From Candidatus Omnitrophota bacterium (lineage in GTDB: Bacteria > Omnitrophota > Gorgyraeia > Duberdicusellales > 4484-171), in assembly GCA_037146775.1 (NCBI GenBank), contig JBAWWL010000009.1, forward strand, positions 68,575 through 132,574: 64,000 nucleotides of DNA, in the 5' to 3' direction. The position numbers and the translations under genes are program-made. This document shows, in pieces, positions 1,729 through 56,242 of the stretch (positions are counted from its first letter, which is position 1; every line of letters begins with the position of its first letter). Below the pieces are notes generated by a model. It was given only the letters and a program-made list of their open reading frames with translations. It did not search any database and was not told the DNA's origin.

Positions 1729-3606
1729 CTATACTAATTTAAACTTACTGGAAATTTCTTTAAGCTCGTGCGCCATTTCGTTTAATTGCTTTACGGCAGC
1801 CTGTGATTGCTGCGCGCCTGCAGCGATCTGCTTCATGGCTTCGTCAATATTAGCCATGGCATCAGCGATCTGTTTGGAACCGGAAATCTGTTGCGTAGTA
1901 GCCATGGCTATTTCCTTGGCTTTTTCCGCGGTCTCCTGCGCGAGCCTTGTTTCTTCCTCCACGCTAACAACACTGGTTTCCATGGACATTACTGAATTAG
2001 ACATTTCATGCTGGATAATTTCAATCAAACCGGTGATATCTTTTGTAGACTTGGCGGTTGAATCCGCGAGTTTACGGATTTCATCGGCAACTACCGTAAA
2101 ACCCCTGCCTTGTTCACCGGCGCGTGCTGCCTCGATAGAGGCGTTCACCGCTAAAAGATTGGTCTGATCCGCTACATCATCGATTACTTCGGTAATTTTA
2201 CCGATCTGTTGGGACTTTTCGCCTAAAGAAGTAATCATCTGGCCGGTTTTTCCGATCGCCTCTTTAATTTTAACCATACCGCTCACCGCATGCATAGCAG
2301 CCTGTGCTACGCGCTTAATACTTTCACCAACCTGCTCGGAAGTTGCAGAAAGCTCTTTAGCTGCCGAGGTTGTTTCAGCAACAGCGGAAGACTGCTCCCG
2401 TGCGCCCGCAGCCTGTTGTTGGCTAGCGGCAAGAATTTCTTGGCCGGCCGAGGTAATTTTATTCACTGCCTCTTGCGCTTTGCCTAAAACCGTTTTAAGA
2501 TTCTTAAGCATGTCATTGAAAGACTGCGCAAGTAATTCAATTTCGTCATTAGTTTTAATGGAAATATTTTTGGTGAGATCTCCGCGTCCAACATCTTCCG
2601 AGAATACTGATAATTGCTTAATTGGCCCTGCGATACTCATGGCTATCCTTAACGCAAAAAAGGTAATACATGCCGCAGTTATTATCGTAATGAGAAAAAT
2701 AATTTTTCCTAGCTGGCTGGTTTCTGCAAACGCCTCTCTTACATCAATCTCAGTAAGGATAAGCCAACCTAAATTAAACTCTTTGCCTAGCTTACCGGAC
2801 ACAGAAACGCCAAGTACAGGCTGGTTACGATAATCCGGATAAATTCCGGACGTATTTTTCTTTTGGTCTAAAAATAAGCGTACTGGCTGGGTATCGATTT
2901 TTTCTTTTAAAAATTCATTATTATTGCTCCTCAATTCTGTGATAACATATCCGTTCTTATTAACAATATAGGCCTCACCGCTACTGCCCAGTCCTGTGCG
3001 CTCAATCATAATTTCATTAATCCTTTTCATTTCATAGCGGAGCACAATAATGCCAAGCAATTCACCGGTGAGTTTATTTTTTAGCGGTCCGGAAAAAGCA
3101 ATAGTTGGCTTGCCGCTTGAAGCCATATACGCATCCTTTATGTGAATATCGTTTTTTCCATTGATAAAATAGTCATCTTGAGATTTATCCACGCCAACCA
3201 TGTCTTTTTCTGTAGATACAATGATTTTTCCTTGAGGATTTAATATATATATAGAGTAAATTTGCGAGTCAACAGGCATCTTGTCTTCGGTAAGATATTT
3301 GGTAAGCTCTTGCGTCAATAAGGTTGAGTCAGCGCTTTTCGAGCTGATTTTTTCCATAGATTCCAAAATAAACCTGTCTTTGCAAAAAGAATCAGTCCGC
3401 CGTTCTTTTTCGTGTAGATAAGAAACCATGTTCTCCTCTCTACCATGACCGATGGCCCCAAAATCATTCAGCACCTGCTTCTTTATGGCGTCCCGGCCTA
3501 GGCTAAAACTAAAGTATCCGACTATAGCAATCGGAACCAGCGAAACAACCAAGAATGAAAAAAGTAATTTAAACTTTAAACTTCCTAAAAAAATATTACG
3601 CATCAC
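1729..3606 (-). CDS. Methyl-accepting chemotaxis protein (two TM segments, periplasmic sensor, HAMP, MA signalling domain)
   Basis: The 625-aa ORF has an N-terminal TM helix, a periplasmic sensor region of about 250 aa and a second TM helix. HAMP and a C-terminal methyl-accepting coiled coil ([29 protein letters not shown]) follow. It sits immediately upstream of cheA. Confidence 0.85.
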
Positions 3607-4130: not shown

Positions 4131-4601
4131 CTATTTAGATGATTTTTTCCTCACCTCAATACTTTCCTGTACTTTTTGTATGCTTTTAGCCGCATCGTGG
4201 CTTAAAAGCTTTAATATGTCGACGATAAGAATTAAACGCTTTTCTCTTCTCGCTACTCCCAATAAATAATCCGCCCCCTTGAGCATATCATCGGGCATGG
4301 TAATCGCCTCTTGCGTTATATTAAGCACCCCGGAAACATTATCTACGATCACGCCCGCCATATGTTCGTTAAACTGCGTTATAATAATCCGGTTAGTTTT
4401 CTGAAGCTTTTGCTTCGCAAGGCCTAATTTCACCCGCAGATTAATCAAGGTTATGATTTTTCCGCGCAGGCTCACTACACCCTCTACAAAATCTGCTACG
4501 TCTGGTATGGAAATAACCGGCCGCATCCGAATTACTTCCCGCACCTGTATAATATCTGCTCCATATTCCTTATCGCCGACAGAAAAAACAACTATTTTCA
4601 T
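4131..4601 (-). CDS. cheW: CheW-like coupling protein (second copy)
   Basis: 156 aa. CheW-domain pattern (EYGADIIQVREVIRM...VEGVVSLRGKIITLINLR). Confidence 0.8.
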   Translation of the reverse strand: MKIVVFSVGDKEYGADIIQVREVIRMRPVISIPDVADFVEGVVSLRGKIITLINLRVKLGLAKQKLQKTNRIIITQFNEHMAGVIVDNVSGVLNITQEAITMPDDMLKGADYLLGVARREKRLILIVDILKLLSHDAAKSIQKVQESIEVRKKSSK

Positions 4602-4700
4602 TCTTGTATCCTAATCAAAAGTATACTTATCATTTTTTACTATCCTCTATTCTCCCCACTATATACTACATACTATGTACCATGTACTTTGTATTATGCA

Positions 4701-9316: not shown

Positions 9317-9489
9317 ACAATTAGTACATAGTCGTTAGTCGATAGTATATAGCAAGAAAAGTTAAATATTAAAAATTAAATATTAAAAATCAAAATGGCA
9401 ATGCAAAACTCAAAAAAATGTAAATTCTGGTGCTTCATTTTGATATTTACATTTTAATTTTTTATTTTAAAACGTTACCGACAGACATA

Positions 9490-9610
9490 AGACGATACGA
9501 GCTTCGCCCGCTTCGCCGAGCGAATCGAGGCGAGTCACCGTCTGACGACCCCCGTCTTACTACATACTCACGACTATGTACTATGTACGACATGCTATGC
9601 ACTATAAATC
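9490..9610. repeat. Composite dispersed repeat: a GC-rich hairpin (CGCCCGCTTCGCCGAGCGAATCGAGGCGAGT) then ACCGT... then a TACTACATACTCACGACTATGTACTATGTAC module. Other copies are at 11480..11590 and 33087..33195 (the latter lacks the GC part), with partial copies at 4657..4700 and 54895..54960.
   Basis: Direct sequence comparison. All copies have the same orientation and lie 5' of minus-strand genes. Confidence 0.75.
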
Positions 9611-10934: not shown

Positions 10935-11589
10935 AGCTAACCAAACTCTAAACCGGTATCGTCGCTAGTATAGCGTATGTCGTATATAGTAAATAAATTC
11001 AAATACCAAAGCACAAATGACAAGTAAACTCAAAACTCAAAGCGTAAATCTCAAAACAGTTTTGCGTTTTAAGTTTTTACTTTTGAGTTTTATTCAATTT
11101 GTCATTTGGATTTTGACATTTGTCATTCCCTTCTCTACGTTTTGTCATTTGAAATTACACATATTATACTTTTTTTCTGCGGAAAAGTAAACGATTGTTT
11201 ATTTATGTTAATAGGTTAATAGGTTGATAGGCAATATGGAGAAAGTATGTCGTATGTAGTACGGAGTATATCGTTAAGAAAGCGGTGGGACGGGAGAAAA
11301 ATTAAAGAATTAACGAATTAAAATATTAACGCATTATTATATATTGTAAACGTAAAGCTAAAAACTTAAAATGTAAAATTGTTTACGCATCGTATATAGT
11401 ATGTCGTATATAGTGAAAACGTCTTACGGTTGCGCAACTCGTCACGGTTTACGTCTTACTTATCAAGACGAATAACGTCCGACGTCCAACGAAACGAGCA
11501 TCGCCCGCTTCGCTGAAGCTTTAGCGAGGCGAGTAACCGTTACCTCTATTCGATTTTCACTACATACTATGTACTATACGTCCATAGTG

Positions 11590-11634
11590 GGTAGAAAATA
11601 AGAAGCCCTGTTACGATTACTCGTAACAGGGCTT
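11590..11634 (-). terminator. Rho-independent terminator downstream of the OMP gene
   Basis: A perfect 13-bp stem (AAGCCCTGTTACG / CGTAACAGGGCTT) with a 6-nt loop, followed on the minus strand by CTTATTTTCT. Confidence 0.7.
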
Positions 11635-16691: not shown

Positions 16692-16853
16692 ATCAGAAGT
16701 CAGAGATCAGAGGTCAGAGATCAGAAATCAGAGGTCAGAGGTCAGAAGTCAGAGATCAGAGGTCAGAAGTTAGAGGTCAGACACCCTCTGTCTTCTGTCT
16801 TCTGTCGTCTGTCGTCTGTTCTCTGTCTTCTGTCATCTGTCTTCTGTCATCTG
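16692..16853. repeat. Heptanucleotide tandem array as an inverted pair: about 13 CAGAGGT-type units, then the spacer ACACCC, then about 10 TCTGTCT-type units
   Basis: This fills the whole intergenic region between 16667 and 16858. The left half is purine-rich and the right half pyrimidine-rich, at about 70% complementarity, giving an imperfect long hairpin or cruciform. Confidence 0.85.
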
Positions 16854-16857
16854 TTTA

Positions 16858-25719: not shown

Positions 25720-25745
25720 ATTAACCTCACTCCGTTTGGCAGAAA

Positions 25746-25913
25746 TCAGACGTCAGAGGTCAGAGATCAGAGATCAGAAAAAAAAGAAATAAGAATATTC
25801 TGCCTTCTGGCTTCTGGCTTCTGTCATCTGACCTCTATTTTTTGTCCTCTGCCTTCTGATCTCTGTCATCTGTCCTCTGTTCTCTGACCTCTGTCCTCTG
25901 TCTTCTGTTCTGA
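25746..25913. repeat. Heptanucleotide tandem array as an inverted pair (CAGAGGT-type units, A-rich spacer, then TCTGNCY units), flanked by inverted GGCAGAA/TTCTGCC
   Basis: Same family as the array at 16692-16853. The right half extends into the 3' end of the RND ORF. Confidence 0.85.
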
Positions 25914-28900
25914 TGAAACACCGCATACACCGTAGGAACAAATATCATAGTAATTAAGGTGGACACCGATAATCCGCCAACCATGGTAACACCTATAGGC
26001 TGCCACGTCTCTGAACCCTCACCGTTAGAAAGAGCCAAAGGCAGTAACCCCGCCAAGGTGGTAATGGTGGTCATCAAAACTGGCCGCAACCTATCCTTGC
26101 CACCAAGAGTAACTGCTTCATGCATCGACAAACCTCTGGCACGTAATATTTGGATATAGCTCACCAGAACAATAGCATTATTAACTACAATACCCATTAG
26201 CATAACCACACCTAAATAGCTGATTACATTTAAGGTTACGGGTTCAGGAAAAATGAATTTGAGAAAAGGCAATTGCGTAGCCAAGAAGCCTAAAATTACT
26301 CCCGTAAAAGTAAAAGGAATCGAAAACATGATAATGAAAGGATCAAGCAAAGATTCAAACTGCGCCGCCATCACCATATATACCAAACAGGTACCCAGAA
26401 TTAAAAGCAAGAAAAGGTCCCTGAATGCTTTTCTCTGTTCATCGGCCTCACCCCCAAAATTCACCATAATGTCAGCGGGTAAAGTTATTTTTGAAAATTC
26501 TTTTTTAAGGTCATCGACAATTTCTCCGGAAGAACGTTTATAGGTGTTGCATTCCACCCGTACTATCCTTTCACGATTCTGGCGTTCAATCTCTATGGGC
26601 CCGAGGCTTTCATATATTTTTGCAATATTCGATAGTTGAACCGGCCTTCTTAGACTGCCCCCCTTTAAAGTAATGACATCCTGTAACGGAGTAAATGTTT
26701 TTATGTCTTCCGGTAAAGGCGAAATAATCGGTAAATTCCCGATATCTTCCAGCTTCGAACGAGACGGTTCATCAAGCCGGACATAAATATCGTAGGTTTC
26801 CCCCTTCTCTCTATATTTGGTAGCGGAAGAGCCCTCGATAAATGTTTTTAGGTTACTCGCAATAGTGTACATATCCAGGCTTAGCATGGCTGCTTTTTCT
26901 CGATCAACTTCTATCTTAATTTCCGGCCGGTTTTCATCACGAGAAATAGCCGCATCGACGGTCCCGGGTATTTTTTCCATAATTGCTTTTATTTTTTGTG
27001 CTATCAAATCCGTATCCGCAAAAGAATGCCCAATTATTTCAACCTGTATGGCTTTACCGCTGGTTCCAGTAATTAACCTGCCTATAGGATTGCCGGTAGA
27101 AATGTCTGCCTTGATAACACCGGGAATGTTTCTTATTTTGTTACGTACTGCCTGGCCTACTTCTTTTACGGATCGCTTCCTTTTCTCTTTAGGTACAAGC
27201 TTTGCCCCCGAAGTGACAACATGTGTTCCTGAAGCGTTACCCATGCTTCTTCCTATGCCACTTACTTGTCCGCTTCTTACATAATAAAACCTTGCTTCAG
27301 ACACATCAGCTTTTAAAATTTCCTCTATCCGCTTCGCAACCTTGTCTGTTTCTTCCAACCGCGTTCCCACGGGAAGACTAACCGTAATGCGCAAATCTCC
27401 GGAATCTTCTTCCGGAATAAATTCACTGCCGACGAAACGGGCTAAAAATAAACTCGCGATAAAAGCGGCGAGAAAGCCAAGAAGCACTATTTTTTTATGC
27501 CGTAATGCCCAACCAAGAACGCGCGCATAATAATCTTCCCACGACTGAAACATTTTTTCCGAAATCTCATAAATCTTCTCTTTCCACACCCTCAATCTCT
27601 GCCACCTGCCCCCTGCCTTCTGTCCTCTGACCTCTGTCCTCTGATCCCTCCCCATCCACTTCGAACAAAGCATGGGGCTAAAAGTGGCGGCGGTAAAAAG
27701 AGAAGCGAGCAATGTTACGGTTACAATAATTGCCAGCTCCCCAAACATGATACCTACTACTCCGGGAATAAACAGCATCGGTAAAAATACAACGACGGTA
27801 GTAAATGTTGAAGCAGATATGGATAAAAACATCTCGGAAGTTCCAAAGATTGCCGCCTCGGTGGGCCGGTTACCTCTTTGTAAGCGCCGATAAACATTAT
27901 CCACCACTACAATCGCATTATCTACCACCATACCGGTAGCAATAGCGATAGAAGAAAGACTAATAGTATTTATAGTTTTACCGCTTAAAAAAAGATAAAT
28001 AAAGCTGATAAGTAACGAAAAAGGAATGGTCAAGACGATGATCATACTGGGAGCGAATTGGCGCAAGAAAAACCAAACTACAACGATTACCAAAACTATC
28101 GCTATCCAAAGAGAAGATTTTAAAGATTCTAGTGAATTTATAATATCCTGGGAGGTATCAAAAATAATATTCATTTTAACATCAGCAGGAAGGTTCGTTT
28201 CTAACTCTTTCAGTCTTTTCTTAACGCGATTAGCTACCTCTACGGCGTTGGTTCCGCTTTGTTTTTGCACCATCATAATTATTCCGCGCTCTTGTTTAAT
28301 ACGCACCAGGCTGGTTACTTCTTTAAAACTGTCTTCCACTCTCGCTATATCTTTCAGATAAATAGGTTTGCCATTACGCTTACCTAAAATAACTAAGTTT
28401 ATTTCTTCGGGAGTGGCAAACTCTCCGGGTAATCTTATCAAATAATCGGTAAGGCCGGTTTTAAGGCTGCCTACGGGTTGGGTAATATTTTCTCTTTTTA
28501 AAGCTTCCTGGATGTCCAAGATAGAAAACGCATAACCCTCCAGGCGCTGACGATCTACCCAAATATTGATTTGCCGCTCCAACCCCCCGCCCTGTAACTG
28601 CACGGTACCTACCCCGGGAAGTTGGCGGAGAGCATCACCGATGTTTTTATCCATAAGATCATACAGATCGGGATAGGTTTGTTTTGCGGTCACGCCTATG
28701 GCTAAAATTGGAATATCTGCGGTATTAAATTTATGAATAAAAGGATTGTCCATTTCATCAGGAATATCGGGCAAATTCCTTTTGGCAAGTTCAATGCGGT
28801 CGCGGATATCATTAGAGGCTTCATCTAAATTAGTTCCCCAGATAAATTTAAGGGTGACGATCGAGAAACCTTCCGAAGAACGGGAAGTAATTTTTTCTAA

Positions 28901-29128
28901 ACCGGGAGTAGTACCCAGGCGATTTTCCAGTTCTTGTGTTACTTTCACCTCCACGTCCTCAGGGCTTGCGCCGGGATAAGTTGAGATAACCGTTATCGAG
29001 GGCGGCTCAATTTCAGGCATCATATCTATACCAAGGCGGGTAAGGCTGTAAAAAGCAAGAATAAGAATGGAAGAAAAGATCATTAAGTTAGTGACGGGCT
29101 TTTTTACGCCAAATTCGGGTAGATGCAT
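25835..29128 (-). CDS. RND-family efflux permease (AcrB/CzcA-like). The last roughly 25 codons are encoded by the heptamer repeat array.
   Basis: 1097 aa with a 12-TM RND pattern and two large periplasmic loops. The N-terminus MHLPEFGVKKPVTNLMIFSSILILAFYSLTRLGIDMMPEIEPPSITVISTYPGASPE is canonical. The C-terminal tail QNRRQRTEVREQRTDDRDQKAEDKK is low-complexity and repeat-derived. Confidence 0.85.
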   Translation of the reverse strand: MHLPEFGVKKPVTNLMIFSSILILAFYSLTRLGIDMMPEIEPPSITVISTYPGASPEDVEVKVTQELENRLGTTPGLEKITSRSSEGFSIVTLKFIWGTNLDEASNDIRDRIELAKRNLPDIPDEMDNPFIHKFNTADIPILAIGVTAKQTYPDLYDLMDKNIGDALRQLPGVGTVQLQGGGLERQINIWVDRQRLEGYAFSILDIQEALKRENITQPVGSLKTGLTDYLIRLPGEFATPEEINLVILGKRNGKPIYLKDIARVEDSFKEVTSLVRIKQERGIIMMVQKQSGTNAVEVANRVKKRLKELETNLPADVKMNIIFDTSQDIINSLESLKSSLWIAIVLVIVVVWFFLRQFAPSMIIVLTIPFSLLISFIYLFLSGKTINTISLSSIAIATGMVVDNAIVVVDNVYRRLQRGNRPTEAAIFGTSEMFLSISASTFTTVVVFLPMLFIPGVVGIMFGELAIIVTVTLLASLFTAATFSPMLCSKWMGRDQRTEVRGQKAGGRWQRLRVWKEKIYEISEKMFQSWEDYYARVLGWALRHKKIVLLGFLAAFIASLFLARFVGSEFIPEEDSGDLRITVSLPVGTRLEETDKVAKRIEEILKADVSEARFYYVRSGQVSGIGRSMGNASGTHVVTSGAKLVPKEKRKRSVKEVGQAVRNKIRNIPGVIKADISTGNPIGRLITGTSGKAIQVEIIGHSFADTDLIAQKIKAIMEKIPGTVDAAISRDENRPEIKIEVDREKAAMLSLDMYTIASNLKTFIEGSSATKYREKGETYDIYVRLDEPSRSKLEDIGNLPIISPLPEDIKTFTPLQDVITLKGGSLRRPVQLSNIAKIYESLGPIEIERQNRERIVRVECNTYKRSSGEIVDDLKKEFSKITLPADIMVNFGGEADEQRKAFRDLFLLLILGTCLVYMVMAAQFESLLDPFIIMFSIPFTFTGVILGFLATQLPFLKFIFPEPVTLNVISYLGVVMLMGIVVNNAIVLVSYIQILRARGLSMHEAVTLGGKDRLRPVLMTTITTLAGLLPLALSNGEGSETWQPIGVTMVGGLSVSTLITMIFVPTVYAVFHQNRRQRTEVREQRTDDRDQKAEDKK
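27601..27650. repeat. Short heptamer-array fragment (CCTTCTGTCCTCTGACCTCTGTCCTCTGA) embedded in the RND coding sequence
   Basis: Same repeat family. It encodes an ...EVRGQKAGGRWQRLRV insertion in a periplasmic/cytoplasmic loop. Confidence 0.7.
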
Positions 29129-29137
29129 TGTTTCCTC

Positions 29138-29557
29138 TTAGTTACATTCCCCATGCGGAAGCATGGGGTCTTGCTCCTTTTTCTGATTACGTATATATCG
29201 CCTAACCTTTTCTATTTCTATTTTTTGTACCTGCCGATAGCCGTACCTAGTTGCCCAAAAAGCTTTTCCTTTCTCCACAGGCTTCCGCCTGTGGTATCTG
29301 CATTTCCCTTGCAAACAAAGACCCAAATGTATTTCTCTTGAAGAAACACTTTTTAGAGTTCTCACAACCGCAGATAGTTCTTCTTTAGTATTAACCTCTA
29401 CCAACAAATGCACGTGGTCTTTATTTGTTTCGTACTCTAATACTTTATATTTATGCCTTTGTATGCATTCTGCAAAAATATCCTTAATAGCTCGTTCCAT
29501 CCCATCCTGTAGTATTGGTTTTCTATATTTAGTCACAAACCAAACATGGCAATGCAT
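29138..29557 (-). mobile_element. tnpA: IS200/IS605-family Y1 (HUH) transposase TnpA. It is possibly a domesticated RAYT-like copy; only 9 bp separate it from the RND start.
   Basis: 139 aa. MHCHVWFVTKYRKPIL...DHVHLLVEV carries the HUH motif, with a downstream Tyr. It is flanked on one side by the heptamer array at 29557-29640. No room for a full IS end before the RND start. Confidence 0.8.
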
Positions 29558-29640
29558 CGCTCTGTCCTCTGACCTCTGCCCTCTGTCATCTGCCCTCTGT
29601 CATCTGCCCTCTGTCATCTGTCCTCTGTCTTCCGTCTCTT
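29557..29640. repeat. Heptamer tandem array (TCTGTCCTCTGACCTCTGCCCTCTGTCATCTG...) directly abutting the tnpA start. It also encodes the C-terminal tail of the adaptor protein.
   Basis: Same TCTGNCY family. It translates as ...EETEDRGQMTEGR at the end of ORF 29600..30577. Confidence 0.8.
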
Positions 29641-30508
29641 CCTCAACAACTACTTCCGCTCCCTCGCGTAGACGTTGCTGACCCATAATAACGACAAGAT
29701 CTCCTTCTTGTAACCCCTCGGTTACCTCATAATAGGGACCTTGACGGATACCTAAAGCAATCTTCTTTAATACTGCTTTCTTGTTCTCAATTGTAAACAC
29801 ATACAAATCCGGATATCTGCCTATAATCGCCTCTTTTAAAATAACCAGCGCCTTTTTATGTTCCTGCAAAACCAAGTTAACCCGGGCAAACATTCCTGAC
29901 TGGAGTTTATGCTCATAATTATCCACAGTAATCTCTATCGGCGCAGCACGGGTGCCTAAATCTACAACCGGGCTAATCTTGGTGATTTTTCCGACGAACT
30001 GTTCTGTGGAATATGCATCAACGCTTATGTTTGCACTCTGGCCTAATGAAATCTTGGATAAATATTTTTCAGGAATTTCTACCCCTATCTTTACTCTATC
30101 CATGCTCACCACCAAAGCGATCGCAGTCTGAGTATTCACATTAGTACCTATATCCACATACACTCTGCCTATTCTACCGCTTAAGGTACTTTCTACGGGC
30201 GCTTTCTCAAACTTTAAGCCCACCTCATCGCGATCAATGTAAGCGATTACCTCTCCTTTGTTAATTACGGCACCGTCTTCTTTCAGTTTTTCAATAATTT
30301 TACCGCTTACCTTAGGATAAATAGCGACTTCGTCTTCTGCTTTGATATTACCGACATATTCAAGGATGCTCGCCACATTCTTGAATGTGACTCTATATAC
30401 TTTCACCGGTATCGATTGCAAAGCTTCGTCTTTCTTTGCCCCTTGCGTCGAGCAAGCGCTCATAAACAATATGGCCATAGAAATTATTGCGATATTATTT
30501 TTTTTCAT
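29600..30508 (-). CDS. RND efflux periplasmic adaptor (membrane fusion protein), lipoprotein. The start is taken at MKKNNIAIISMAILFMSAC.
   Basis: Lipobox LFMSAC, a biotinyl/lipoyl-like half-barrel and beta-barrel HlyD-like pattern. Lies between tolC and the RND gene. Confidence 0.8.
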   Translation of the reverse strand: MKKNNIAIISMAILFMSACSTQGAKKDEALQSIPVKVYRVTFKNVASILEYVGNIKAEDEVAIYPKVSGKIIEKLKEDGAVINKGEVIAYIDRDEVGLKFEKAPVESTLSGRIGRVYVDIGTNVNTQTAIALVVSMDRVKIGVEIPEKYLSKISLGQSANISVDAYSTEQFVGKITKISPVVDLGTRAAPIEITVDNYEHKLQSGMFARVNLVLQEHKKALVILKEAIIGRYPDLYVFTIENKKAVLKKIALGIRQGPYYEVTEGLQEGDLVVIMGQQRLREGAEVVVEEETEDRGQMTEGR

Positions 30509-32254: not shown

Positions 32255-32310
32255 TTAATTCTATTAATATTCAACTATATTGATTGTTAACTATGTTAAC
32301 TATATCAGAA
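32255..32310. promoter_or_regulatory. Putative MarR operator/promoter region: direct repeat GTTAACTAT GTTAACTAT plus an AT-rich -10-like sequence upstream of marR
   Basis: TATTAATATTCAACTATATTGATTGTTAACTATGTTAACTATATC lies immediately upstream of the marR start at 32251. Confidence 0.45.
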
Positions 32311-32608
32311 ATAGAAATTTTGTCAAGACAGATAAACCCAGATTCTGCCTGCTCCCGAAGGGAGCGAGCAAAATCTGTCCGAAGGGCCACCGCTAAAATT
32401 TCTAACCAACAGGCGCCCGTCGGGCAGCCTGCTGGGCTATGGAAATTTTGGAAAACGGCGGGGTAATCCCAAAATTTGCATTAGAAAGTGGTTGGCGTGT
32501 TTTACCCATTGAAAGGGTTGTGGCTATACAATTATTTTCTGCACTAAAAAAATGCAGGCAAATTTTGGGATAAAACCGAATTGTTCAGGTTAAATCTCCG
32601 GCGGAAGT

Positions 32609-32839: not shown

Positions 32840-33193
32840 CGACCCTCCTCCACGGGCATGCCCGTGGCAACCACATCAGTAACATTCTGCTTATAACGAA
32901 ATTCATATGAGTGAATTCAAAATTCCAAGTACAAATTACAAACAAACTCTAAACACTAAACTCTAAATCCTAAATAAACTCAAAACGAAAAACTCAAAAT
33001 TAAAAACGATACTGGTTTGAGTTTGGAATATTTGAATTTTGGATTTGTTTAGGATTTAGGATTTCGGATTTAGAGTTTATCATAAGCCGTTACCGTTAAT
33101 CGGTTTTCACTACATACGACGTACTATGTACTACATACTATATACTCAGTACTCACTACTCACGACTATCTACCATGTACTACGTACGACATA

Positions 33194-33586
33194 CTATTTC
33201 ACTGCATATTTTCCCGCGCCCAACATCATAAGCGCCAAGCAGATGCACGCAATAACAAAAGTATATTCGAAACCTCCTTGCTGGATAAAAAATCCTTTAG
33301 ATAAATGCACGGTGGCTGCGGCTACCATGATAAATACCAATAATAATGCCGCCGCCAGTCTGGTCCAGAAACCAACCAGTAAACACACACCACCGATAAG
33401 TTCGCTGCAGGCCGCAATATAAGCCCACACCAAAGACGGTTTAAAACCAAGGCCTGAGAGCATCTGACTAAAACCATGCAGACCCGGACCGGAAAACAAA
33501 CCAAAACTTGCCTGCAAACCATGCCCGATAAACACAACTGCTAAACATAAACGTAAAACTAAAATAGCTACATCTGTCATATACAC
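33194..33586 (-). CDS. DoxX-family membrane protein
   Basis: MTDVAILVLRLCLAVVFIGHGLQ... matches the DoxX pattern. 130 aa with 4 TM helices. Confidence 0.7.
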   Translation of the reverse strand: MYMTDVAILVLRLCLAVVFIGHGLQASFGLFSGPGLHGFSQMLSGLGFKPSLVWAYIAACSELIGGVCLLVGFWTRLAAALLLVFIMVAAATVHLSKGFFIQQGGFEYTFVIACICLALMMLGAGKYAVK

Positions 33587-46244: not shown

Positions 46245-46445
46245 TAAAACCATAAACACTAAACTCTAAATCCTAAATAAACTCAAAACTAAAAACTCAA
46301 AACGATAATGTTTTGAGTTTGTTTACCTGCCTGCCGGCCCTCGGCTTCCCGTCTCGCCTTCGGCTCGCCGAGGCGGACGCCGCGAGGCGAGTAGGCAGGG
46401 AGTTTAGGATTTCTGGTTTAGGGTTTGACATAATCTTGTTTCGAA
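46245..46445. repeat. Composite intergenic element: AT-rich inverted arms (AAACTCTAAATCCTAAATAAACTCAAAAC ... GAGTTTAGGATTT...GGTTTAGGGTTT) around the GC-rich hairpin core
   Basis: A large imperfect palindrome. The same AT-rich arms recur at 32925-33085 and, in degenerate form, at 10990-11130. The GC core recurs at 43999-44075. Confidence 0.75.
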
Positions 46446-54588: not shown

Positions 54589-54940
54589 TGTTCCTCCTTT
54601 TGCCGATACGATCGGACTAAGGCGTAATCCTTGCTAAAAAAATAGCTATCGTCCAACACATTTCTTTATTCTTCCCAACAACCCATCAAAAACAATCATC
54701 CAACAAACTGGCTATATTTTATATTTTTAATTTTTGATATTTGATATTTAATTTTTCTGACCCTTCCTGCCTACTAACCTATCAACATACTAACCTATCA
54801 ACCTATATTCTTTCCCCAAATAATTCGTTAATCATTTAATCCGTTAATTCTTTAACCTACTAACCTATCCACCTATCAACATATCAACCTACATAATACT
54901 CACAACTATATACTATGTACTCAATACTCACGACTATATA

Positions 54941-56242
54941 CTATAGCGACGCATCTACCTCAATAAAAATACCTAAAATAATATCTCGCCCGGCAAGATG
55001 CATAGTTTGCGCATTGAGAAAAACTGGTACAATGGTACCATTTTTATGCTGCACTTCAACCGCAATATCTTCTGTACGGCCCCTTTGTGCGTGTATATAA
55101 AATTTTTCTTTATACTTTTCTTCCTGGCCAAAAGGATGCAATTGCCACTGCTGCATACCGACCAACTCCTCGTGGCTATAGCCCAAAAGCGTTTGCGCCT
55201 GCCGGTTACACTCAATGATATTGCCGGTTTCAATATCAGCTATAACCATTGCTGTACCCGCATTATCAAAAATAGTCTTAAATTTTTCCTCTGATTCCCG
55301 CAGCGCCAACTCAGTCTTCTTGCGTTCGCTAATGTCAACATTTACCTCCGCTACCAGCCATTCACCGTTTTCATTTTGGAAAGGTATGGTTGTTATCTGG
55401 ACGGGCCTGTTATTTTCTTTTACTAATACTTCTTCCGTAACTTTTAGCTGTTTAGTTTTTAAAGCCTCTACGATACCGCAGCCGGGACAAATATCGTTGC
55501 GGCCCATGAAATACTGATAACATTTTCTTCCCTGCACTTCGCCATATACTTTCGCCCATTCCGGATCAATATAACGTATATTGAATTCTGTATCAATGAT
55601 ATCCAGCCCTGTCTTGGTAGCTCCGAGAATATATTCTATTTGTTTTTTAAGCGTGCCTAATTCTAGCTGCATTGTTTTACGGTGCGCAACCTCTTCCTGT
55701 AATTCCACGTTTGTCCTAGCTAATTCAAAAGTACGCCTTTGTACGCGTAGCTCTAAATCTTCTTTCACTTTTTCAAGTTGAGCCTCAAGTTTATGGCGCT
55801 CGGTGATATCGCGGAAAATACCGGCCACATATTGCTTCCCGCCGCAATTAAGCATGAACCCTTTAATATCAACATGCAATATTTTTTTATCTTTCTTAAG
55901 TAAAGGGATATTTTTTGCTAAGGTAATCTTTTTGTTGATAATCTTCTCAAACTGAGCCAATACGTAGGGAAACTCTCCTGCGGGATGAATTTTATCAATA
56001 GTCAGCTTTTTAAGCTCTCCAAGGCTATAACCCAGCATTTGGCATATACTTTTATTGCCTAAATATATTTTCTTAGTTTTTGGTTCCGCCAAGAGCATGC
56101 CATCATTAGCATAGTCAAAAATATCTTTAAAAATCTCTAGCGGCGCCGCACACATATCTCTCGTTTCACCTCGTAGCGTGCCTTTGGATAAAAAATTCTT
56201 CCTATGTGATAATTTATGCATAATTTTTTTTGTCCGCTTCAT
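54941..56242 (-). CDS. PAS-domain signalling protein (multiple PAS, no output domain recognised)
   Basis: Several PAS-like segments separated by coiled coils (e.g. FDYANDGMLLAE..., IEYILGATKTGLDIID..., FKTIFDNAGTAMVIADIETGNIIECNRQAQTLLGYSHEELVG). No kinase, GGDEF or HTH domain. Confidence 0.6.
   Translation of the reverse strand: MKRTKKIMHKLSHRKNFLSKGTLRGETRDMCAAPLEIFKDIFDYANDGMLLAEPKTKKIYLGNKSICQMLGYSLGELKKLTIDKIHPAGEFPYVLAQFEKIINKKITLAKNIPLLKKDKKILHVDIKGFMLNCGGKQYVAGIFRDITERHKLEAQLEKVKEDLELRVQRRTFELARTNVELQEEVAHRKTMQLELGTLKKQIEYILGATKTGLDIIDTEFNIRYIDPEWAKVYGEVQGRKCYQYFMGRNDICPGCGIVEALKTKQLKVTEEVLVKENNRPVQITTIPFQNENGEWLVAEVNVDISERKKTELALRESEEKFKTIFDNAGTAMVIADIETGNIIECNRQAQTLLGYSHEELVGMQQWQLHPFGQEEKYKEKFYIHAQRGRTEDIAVEVQHKNGTIVPVFLNAQTMHLAGRDIILGIFIEVDASL

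Follow-up and report, generated by a model that had tools for sequence, protein, structure and literature searches.

A lone IS200-class transposase gene carrying its own hairpins inside an efflux operon of a Candidatus Omnitrophota bacterium

A stretch of 64,000 nucleotides (nt) from a Candidatus Omnitrophota bacterium (assembly GCA_037146775.1, contig JBAWWL010000009.1, positions 68,575 to 132,574; hereafter "the window", whose own numbering is used throughout) harbors a single tnpA gene, coding for a Y1 (HUH) transposase and wedged between the adaptor and pump genes of a resistance-nodulation-division (RND) efflux operon. The analysis reported here makes it fairly probable, in our opinion, that this gene belongs to a small IS200-class clade, so far found only in Omnitrophota and Planctomycetota, whose members are compact and promoterless operon cassettes equipped with their own hairpins, and that the window copy entered the operon recently. 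The layout of the clade resembles that of a REPtron, that is, of a REP-associated tyrosine transposase (RAYT) and its repetitive extragenic palindromes (REP), but it is built on an IS200-class enzyme.

Results

Organization of the tnpA gene and its hairpins

The gene is intact, is transcribed in the same direction as its neighbors and has no conventional left end, in agreement with the operon-like embedding of a lone Y1 transposase described in an earlier note on this DNA. Its features, in window coordinates, are the following.

29138..29557, minus strand: tnpA, intact IS200-type Y1 (HUH) transposase gene (H48 and H50 forming the HUH motif, catalytic Y121, Q125)
29149..29168, minus strand: hairpin A at the 3' end of the open reading frame (ORF), CCCCATGC-TTCC-GCATGGGG followed by AATG; ORF nt 389-408
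29275..29294, minus strand: hairpin B, mid-ORF, CCACAGGC-GGAA-GCCTGTGG, with the GNRA loop on the sense strand; ORF nt 263-282
29304..29323, minus strand: decayed remnant of the mid-ORF hairpin A of the clade (ggtctttg-tttg-caagggaa), recognized in the alignment with L002 and in the clade alignment

The ORF starts with ATG and codes for 139 amino acids (aa), which match the Pfam Y1_Tnp profile with an E of 3.5e-26 over positions 5-121 of 121. It embeds two perfect hairpins of 20 nt, each with an 8-bp stem and a tetraloop, and these are the only matches in the 64 kb (0.00 and 0.13 expected). The two are inverted relative to one another, each being close to the reverse complement of the other. 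Hairpin B, which folds in the predicted mRNA, encodes the peptide YHRRKPVE, an optional in-frame insertion of the clade. The unit with the 3' hairpin A and the mid-ORF unit of L002, the closest relative, agree at 27 of 28 nt, the whole genes being 73% identical; the mid-ORF hairpin A of the window gene itself has decayed through a 2-nt deletion in the loop and C>T changes.

The stop codon follows the 3' hairpin A by 8 nt, that is, the hairpin occupies the position where a right-end hairpin would sit. Upstream of the tnpA ATG there is no left-end hairpin, and the region consists entirely of a heptamer array. The view expressed in the earlier note, that there is no room for the hairpins of an insertion sequence (IS), is wrong, the gene itself containing two hairpins of the IS200 end type. 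Instead of subterminal hairpins in the same orientation flanking the gene on both sides, the window has one right-end-type hairpin overlapping the end of the ORF and a second, inverted one inside it; in the relatives, hairpins also occur upstream, at the stop codon or downstream.

The TnpA protein belongs to the IS200 class

By sequence and by fold, the window protein is of the IS200 class and not of the RAYT class. It scores 80.3 bits with the NCBIfam IS200 model (cut-off 55) and 36.8 bits with the REP-associated transposase model REP_Tyr_transpos (cut-off 80). H48, H50, Y121 and Q125 are all conserved, and the catalytic motif is YIRNQ (YIRNQKKEQ) and not Y---NP, in line with a clade consensus of DHVH, FWA and YIRNQKxIPHT; according to Quentin et al. 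2018 (PMC6006769), Y-x3-Q is the signature of class 1 and Y---NP that of RAYTs. The protein thus has the protein traits of subclass 1.1 (Y1 HUH, DH[VI]H, Y-x3-Q, core domain only) and lacks those of the class 2 RAYTs, namely Y---NP and a score above the cut-off of the model. Structural comparisons are in agreement with this assignment. The best sequence and fold matches are 2xm3, 2a6m and 2fyx; the clade profile searched against the PDB matches the ISDra2, IS608 and Sulfolobus transposases and finds no sequence match to the E. coli TnpA_REP (4er8); and the folds nearest to the AlphaFold model (pLDDT 83.8) are those of ISDra2/IS608 TnpA, with an E of about 1e-7, 4er8 ranking 30th. The RAYT-like protein proposed in the earlier note is therefore not supported.

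Two further assignments were considered and rejected. Subclass 1.2 of TnpA_Y1 requires Y---Q--HH, WQ and a specific C-terminal domain, against YIRNQKKEQ and an FWA-type W motif in the window protein, a comparison made by motif (PMC6006769, Table 1). Class 3 requires NHVH, Y----Q, about 178 aa and a CnGA foot, against DHVH, Y-x3-Q, 139 aa and a GATA or GA foot in the clade.

In the AlphaFold model the residues encoded by the hairpin regions (83-100 and 128-139) are disordered, the former lying between the helix 58-81 and the strand 101-110 and the latter forming the tail. What is selected is thus the structure of the nucleic acid, which the protein tolerates in its loops.

A small clade of operon-embedded cassettes

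A search of 5.8 billion proteins retrieved just 36 clusters, with lengths of 117-153 aa. The closest of them is 64% identical, and all those with a name come from Omnitrophota. A scan of 185,579 species genomes yielded 12 loci at >=40% identity, all from Omnitrophota or Planctomycetota and one per assembly, and metagenomes added 21 further loci. In the same genome scan, classical IS200 elements occurred at 2-3 loci in single genomes, and the IS200 of subclass 1.1 have a mean of 4.8 near-identical copies per genome (PMC6006769). The earlier note had pointed to the number of tnpA copies, and the relatives do have one locus per genome in the 12 assemblies, a count based on metagenome-assembled genomes (MAGs). 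The exact window protein was found at this locus only, in two MAGs and one read-set assembly, with one copy in the 64 kb. The viral contigs of IMG/VR contained no clade member, only classical IS200 at <=32% identity, so that a phage-borne clade is unsupported.

The clade members are co-oriented with their neighbors and lie in short gaps of housekeeping operons, between the genes for the type II secretion (T2SS) components T2SS-E and T2SS-F, FabD and FabF, acyl carrier protein (ACP) and FabZ, ArgG and ArgH, or V-ATPase subunits E and C; others are found beside pyruvate-ferredoxin oxidoreductase, between radical-SAM genes, or after PqqD. The cassettes measure about 380-480 nt and have no promoter, and in six members no more than 1-8 nt separate the upstream stop codon from the start of tnpA. 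The absence of a left end and the tight embedding in an operon are the rule in the clade, the start codon being placed at MYYHVWF. No common target motif was seen at the left junctions of the clade members; GAGGAA flanks the gene at either side, both in the window and in L003, for which two ribosome-binding sites are the simplest explanation. A functional link to type II secretion/type IV pilus genes was rejected, T2SS-E being a neighbor in three loci (L003, L011/L022 and L015) and the other members residing in operons of fatty-acid, arginine, V-ATPase, oxidoreductase and radical-SAM genes. In L015 (3001-5571) tnpA is fused in frame to a gene for a T2SS-E/MshEN-type ATPase, giving an ORF of 876 aa with a heptamer-like coded linker stretch.

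Hairpin forms and their conservation in the clade

Two forms of hairpin recur in the clade. Form A, CCCCAYRC-TTCC/TTAC-GYRTGGGG followed by AATG, is found at about ORF nt 238 in most members, between the HUH and the Tyr motifs, where it encodes TP[CRH][FLY]R[VM]GN. Form B, GGATA-C[CT]ACAVRC-GNRA-...-AGG, occupies one of two positions, that is, after A inside the ORF, as the optional YHRRKPVE insertion, or at the ORF end, its loop then containing the stop codon (ATT CCA CAC ACG TGA GTGTGTGG AGG); in the latter case its 3' flank GGAGG comes just before the start of the next gene, which it would serve. In 27 loci, 43 hairpins lie inside the ORFs and 11 within 150 nt of them.

These hairpins are kept by compensatory changes, both within the ORF and at the stop codon. 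Indeed, in a codon alignment of the mid-ORF hairpin that includes the decayed copies, 90.6% of the cells pair, and 16 cells have changed on both sides of the stem, compared with 5.1 +/- 1.9 in shuffles (0/500), and the slid controls collapse. For the aligned B units the corresponding figure is 23 cells, the shuffles giving 6.5 +/- 2.5. As an example, the 3' arm of L092 has undergone a GTG>GCG change (Val>Ala), and a CCA>CCG change in the 5' arm, itself synonymous, restores the pairing; L094 shows the intermediate stage, still uncompensated.

Copies away from tnpA are few. In L017, two further gaps of the V-ATPase operon that harbors tnpA contain A-AATGGATA-B doublets, directly after stop codons; L018 (3358-3449) and L093 have three tandem B units with a 36-nt period right after tnpA and just before the next gene; L019, L094, L099 and L080 have single distant copies. 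Overall, 7 hairpins were counted outside genes in 181 kb of related loci, the L017 doublets included, and none in the window, so that cognate palindromes dispersed in many genomic copies, as expected for a RAYT, were not found.

Some additional structures were observed in these loci. In L080 the mid-ORF hairpin region of tnpA is present a second time, 1.65 kb upstream of the gene (positions 172-224; 53 nt, 96% identical), and this copy might be either a gene fragment or a mobilized hairpin unit. In L094 a stretch of about 84 nt, comprising the 3' end of tnpA with hairpin B, has been duplicated in tandem (4335-4460). A second and unrelated family of GNRA hairpins with an 8-bp stem (ATTCCTGC-GNAA-GCAGGAAT) recurs in Planctomycetota loci (L017 4383-4402, L021 2274-2293 and L167 3109-3128), one copy of it being located in a V-ATPase E-C spacer devoid of tnpA.

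The hairpins are of the type found at IS200 ends

A scan that was meant as a negative control revealed that classical IS200 elements from other phyla use the same type of hairpin as ends. In L130, GGATA-CCCCGTGC-GGAA-GCACGGGG-AGG precedes the ATG by 109 nt, and its stem recurs, in the same orientation, about 17 nt beyond the stop codon. L027 (a Candidatus Saganbacteria MAG, 2960-3400; 32% identity) shares with the clade the motifs YHVWFxTKY and FWARRYGY and has CCCCACA-6 nt-TGTGGGG on either side of its gene, at a distance of 8 nt from the ATG and of 5 nt from the stop codon, forming a very compact two-ended element, which possibly represents the ancestral form of the clade. A few clade members also have an A hairpin 36-49 nt upstream of the gene (L015, L082/L096 and L083), and in L082 there is one on each side of tnpA, at -49 and +381. 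Since canonical relatives bear the same hairpin type, the hairpins of the clade are IS200 end hairpins that differ in site and orientation.

Insertion into the efflux operon

The operon in which the window gene resides has the following organization.

32299..32326, minus strand: promoter-like site in front of marR, the best one of the region (TTGACA-16-TATAGT with TG)
32251-31793, minus strand: marR
31796-30525, minus strand: outer-membrane factor gene
30523/30577-29600, minus strand: RND adaptor (membrane-fusion protein) gene, the upstream neighbor of tnpA; the 307-aa form matches the database entry P0037
29129..29137, minus strand: gaggaaaca, Shine-Dalgarno-like spacer from the tnpA stop codon to the RND ATG
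25835..29128, minus strand: AcrB-type RND permease gene, the downstream neighbor of tnpA

The minus-strand neighbors of tnpA thus code for MarR, the outer-membrane factor, the adaptor (HlyD_D23) and the AcrB-type pump. The only good promoter-like site for the operon is the one upstream of marR, and no terminator-like site was found on the minus strand within the operon; the site upstream of marR is likely the source of the transcript that carries tnpA. The stop codon of tnpA ends at 29138 and the RND ATG lies at 29128, which confirms the 9-nt gap reported in the earlier note.

The comparison with relatives lacking the insert, which the same note had proposed, revealed three empty sites. The orthologous operons of L194, L161 and L162 have no tnpA, and their adaptor-pump gaps measure 137, 4 and 4 nt, respectively. 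L194 has an adaptor 80% identical to that of the window, the same N-terminus of the pump (MHLPEFGVKKPVTNLMIF) and the 137-nt spacer; L161 has a pump 89% identical and is syntenic from marR onward, its junction reading ...GAGGAA TAA taca ATG; the junction of L162 reads ...GAGGAA TAG caag ATG. Relative to these three operons, the window has gained the heptamer tail and tnpA (29638 to about 29138), and there is therefore an insertion polymorphism at orthologous sites, as expected of an IS200 element. The right junction of the window (...GGGG AATGTAAC TAA GAGGAA aca ATG) places the 3' hairpin about 10 nt from the host DNA, as a right end would be. A second MAG, L160, harbors the same insertion, and over 10.9 kb it differs from the window only by an indel of 14 nt (two units) in the heptamer array, between the adaptor stop codon and the tnpA ATG (L160 5880-5950, window 29560-29644). 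A read-through fusion between the adaptor and TnpA, in frame in the window, was rejected, the 14-nt indel of L160 breaking the frame, so that this frame appears to be incidental.

These data bear on a first alternative, i.e., that the gene is an ordinary compact IS200 that has lost its left end, or had it overwritten as the heptamer array grew, and that survives as a stranded copy with a single end, still undecayed. Several observations speak for this: the right-end-type hairpin is at its canonical place, about 10 nt before the host junction; two-sided relatives exist (L082 and L027); close orthologues are polymorphic for the insertion; the mid-ORF hairpin A of the window has decayed; and the GC content of tnpA is 0.383, against 0.418 for the window. 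However, the lack of a left end, the start at MYYHVWF and the tight embedding are the rule in the whole clade and not an accident of the window copy; purifying selection acts on members that lack a left end, and these are intact in many genomes; the catalytic residues of the window copy are themselves intact; and the intragenic hairpin is conserved by compensatory changes, of which a plain IS has no need. We consider this explanation rather unlikely, although it deserves to be kept in mind.

Evolution at the V-ATPase junction

At least ten contigs carry tnpA at the same position between V-ATPase subunits E and C (loci compared: L017, L019, L021, L092, L094 and L098). In this group the dN/dS of tnpA is 0.1-0.4, which indicates purifying selection, and its dS is 0.2-0.55, whereas in the same pairs both flanking genes range from 0.5 to saturation. 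If tnpA had simply been inherited vertically together with its neighbors, this discordance would not be expected, and simple vertical inheritance is ruled out for these loci; the cassette is younger than the flanks at a fixed site. This suggests either reinsertion at the same site or a transfer in which recombination took place in the conserved ends of the two neighboring genes. The step in identity at the start of the ORF is also expected from purifying selection alone. In addition, many related operons lack the gene, the homologues of subunit E being more than 1700 and the tnpA clusters a few dozen. Empty V-ATPase E-C spacers, analyzed as a target source, contain other small repeats and no A or B hairpins.

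The same loci allow a second alternative to be evaluated, according to which tnpA would be a domesticated, vertically inherited RAYT-type gene maintaining dispersed repeats for its host, in a symbiosis like that of REPINs and RAYTs. The single locus per genome, the dN/dS given above, the constant position in the V-ATPase E-C contigs, the inverted orientation of the hairpins and the doublets, similar to bacterial interspersed mosaic elements (BIMEs), speak in its favor; moreover, in-frame intragenic palindromes are known for RAYT subclass 2.4 (PMC6006769). Against this stand the sequence signature and the model score, neither of which is that of a RAYT, the dS values, which contradict simple vertical descent, the many related operons without the gene, and the scarcity of dispersed hairpins both in the window and in the related loci. 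On balance, the domestication hypothesis appears improbable.

Heptamer arrays

The window contains 26 arrays with a period of 7 nt. The first of those listed below adjoins tnpA.

29560..29644, minus strand: heptamer array of GGNCAGA/TGACAGA units, covering the last ~14 residues of the adaptor and the 42 nt from the adaptor stop codon to the tnpA ATG
4658-4698: period-7 array site
9328-9588: period-7 array site
11026-11411: period-7 array site
16693-16854: period-7 array site
25740-25908: period-7 array site
27599-27643: period-7 array site
32940-33197: period-7 array site
46279-46320: period-7 array site
54713-54945: period-7 array site

The tnpA ATG lies 2 nt from the array at 29560-29644 (85 nt, 12.4 copies according to Tandem Repeats Finder), and the stop codon of the adaptor (TGA, 29602-29600) is located inside it, the last ~14 adaptor codons being made of heptamers. 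The earlier note was thus correct in describing an array that abuts the start of tnpA and forms the tail of the adaptor gene. It went on to propose that the arrays are cognate sequences mobilized or generated by the transposase, i.e., a non-palindromic RAYT substrate.

Apart from the adjacency of array and gene, what could support this proposal is the distribution of the repeats. The window contains the heptamer pattern 13 times, where shuffles predict 0 occurrences; three of the four CAGAGGN-type arrays are no more than 4 kb away from tnpA, for which uniform placement gives a chance of about 0.007 (a post hoc calculation); and the density of period-7 arrays is 0.35 per kb in the clade loci against 0.06 per kb in other IS200 loci, a difference confounded by phylogeny. 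However, the 26 arrays of the window are built of many unrelated unit types, and some of them are far from tnpA. Arrays of the CAGAGGN type encode an internal loop of the pump (27599-27643) and its C-terminal tail (25835-25908), segments that the orthologues either lack or replace with different arrays, and L161, whose operon has no tnpA, has an array with an ACAGA core at the same C-terminus of the pump; similarly, the tnpA-less V-ATPase spacer of L170 contains inverted arrays of short units. Arrays occurring at the same sites without tnpA lead us to read the clustering of the CAGAGGN type as a property of the lineage of the operon. The array at 29560-29644 is absent from the orthologous adaptors of L161, L162 and L194, and the adaptor tail of L194 (..GCCGACAGCAAGAAT), again without tnpA, contains GACAG and resembles a seed of the window array. 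Mapped against tnpA, therefore, the arrays are not specific to it, and 4 of the 14 clade loci have none. Furthermore, the indel of two units between the near-identical MAGs fits slippage, the element conserved in the clade is the hairpin and not the heptamer, and a single array does not form a hairpin of the kind that Y1 enzymes recognize. The idea of a heptamer substrate is thus largely refuted, and we assign it only a very slight probability. To judge from these comparisons, the heptamer arrays are an independent, slippage-prone class of repeats of these phyla, and not a part of the transposase system.

As for the repeats themselves, the array next to tnpA is either polymorphic in length or hard to assemble, and several of the window arrays are arranged in adjacent inverted pairs (for instance 16693-16781 with 16787-16854, and 25740-25778 with 25798-25908), which could form long hairpins. 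Cyanobacterial short tandemly repeated repetitive (STRR) sequences are arrays of direct heptamer repeats like those of the window. The TAACTGA repeats of Beggiatoaceae (PMC4679880) are likewise abundant intergenic arrays of 7-nt units shared within a lineage. The units of the window are different from both (CAGAGGN, AAACTCA, ACTATGT and others), and some of its arrays are translated as protein tails and loops.

Two other results concern the window. An Rfam scan of 28900-29900 gave just two sub-threshold chance matches, and at 11603-11634 a perfectly paired stem of 14 bp closes a GTAA/TTAC tetraloop (AAGCCCTGTTACGA-gtaa-TCGTAACAGGGCTT).

Discussion

Relationship to known systems

The clade shares with the IS200 group (subclass 1.1, with IS608 and ISDra2) the DHVH and Y-x3-Q motifs, a core-only protein and the hairpin type CCCC...GNRA...GGGG, with GGATA and AGG flanks as in the left end of L130. 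It differs from that group in having no left-end hairpin and no promoter region, in its intragenic and inverted hairpins, in its length (about 380-480 nt against 600-700 nt), in its co-orientation within operons and in what appears, from MAGs, to be a single locus per genome. With the REPtron/RAYT systems it has in common an apparently single-copy Y1 gene accompanied by short palindromes in inverted orientation, inverted palindrome doublets in operon gaps (L017) and a short conserved flank at the foot of the hairpin (GATA in the clade, GTAG in REP); unlike them, it has a protein without Y---NP, palindromes that are few and, in the window, confined to the gene, and, at the V-ATPase junction, an inheritance that is not simply vertical.

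Three other groups come close in single traits. Subclass 2.4 (Quentin et al. 2018, PMC6006769) has REP sequences inserted into tnpA_REP without a break in the reading frame; this is a class 2 group (NH[IFV]H, Y---NP, ~194 aa) of Cyanobacteria and Bacteroidetes with long GTAG-footed REPs, whereas the enzyme of the clade is of class 1 and its hairpin is short, has a fixed position in nearly all members and is maintained through compensatory changes. Subclass 1.2 is, like the clade, near IS200, low in copy number and without typical terminal structures. Class 3 is present in Planctomycetes, and its atypical flanking secondary structures can be dispersed; the Planctomycetes class 3 has been described as intermediate between IS and REPtron (PMC6006769). 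Judging by motifs and layout, the clade fits the signature of none of these three groups, and pairs the layout of a REPtron-like system with an enzyme of class 1.

A model for the cassette

According to the explanation that we favor, i.e., a promoterless IS200-class cassette that carries its own hairpins and reached this operon recently, the cassette would have entered the adaptor-pump junction after the split from the closest sequenced relatives. Its gene would be transcribed together with the efflux operon from the marR promoter and be translationally coupled; the protein might bind the A and B hairpins as single-stranded DNA, and nick and rejoin the DNA beside them, which may occasionally move hairpin units and, rarely, the whole cassette. 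The heptamer array would have grown from the 3' end of the adaptor gene, and it would now occupy the place of a left end. Having a right-end-type hairpin but no left end, the window cassette is probably immobile or rarely mobile.

Some points weigh against this explanation. Copy number rests on MAGs, in which repeats may be collapsed or lost. The B units were chosen with at most one mismatch, so that their 100% pairing is biased. Most members have no recognizable left end, and L082, L015 and L083 look like ordinary compact IS with an upstream hairpin, so that the window copy could be an ordinary IS minus its left end. Lastly, the 64 kb of the window genome contain just two hairpins, both intragenic, and no dispersed family is shown here.

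A bolder hypothesis, which we put forward tentatively and with more doubt than conviction, is that the clade consists of operon-resident, REPtron-like cassettes in which the in-frame hairpins double as a device for translational coupling, hairpin doublets seed operon gaps, and the spread is homing-like or recombinational. At synonymous sites tnpA is 5-10 times less diverged than the flanking genes, from which it would follow, under this hypothesis, that the cassette has spread between genomes into the same junction.

Conclusions

The clade offers a case for an open question, that is, how selfish IS200-type transposases become single-copy REP-associated genes. Its enzyme is still of the IS200 class and its layout is already REPtron-like, being apparently single-copy, embedded in operons and provided with hairpins in its own ORF, and it could show the first step of this process, be it the loss of an end, the loss of the promoter or the spread of solo hairpins. 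If the bolder hypothesis were correct, the clade would be an evolutionary intermediate between insertion sequence and RAYT system that has arisen inside class 1. It also provides a substrate that can be put to the test, the 20-nt hairpin flanked by GATA and AATG, for an enzyme of phyla in which experimental genetics is scarce or lacking. Lastly, genes of this kind are labelled "IS200/IS605 family transposase" in annotations and read as breaking the operons in which they lie, whereas the operon described here appears to have been kept intact.

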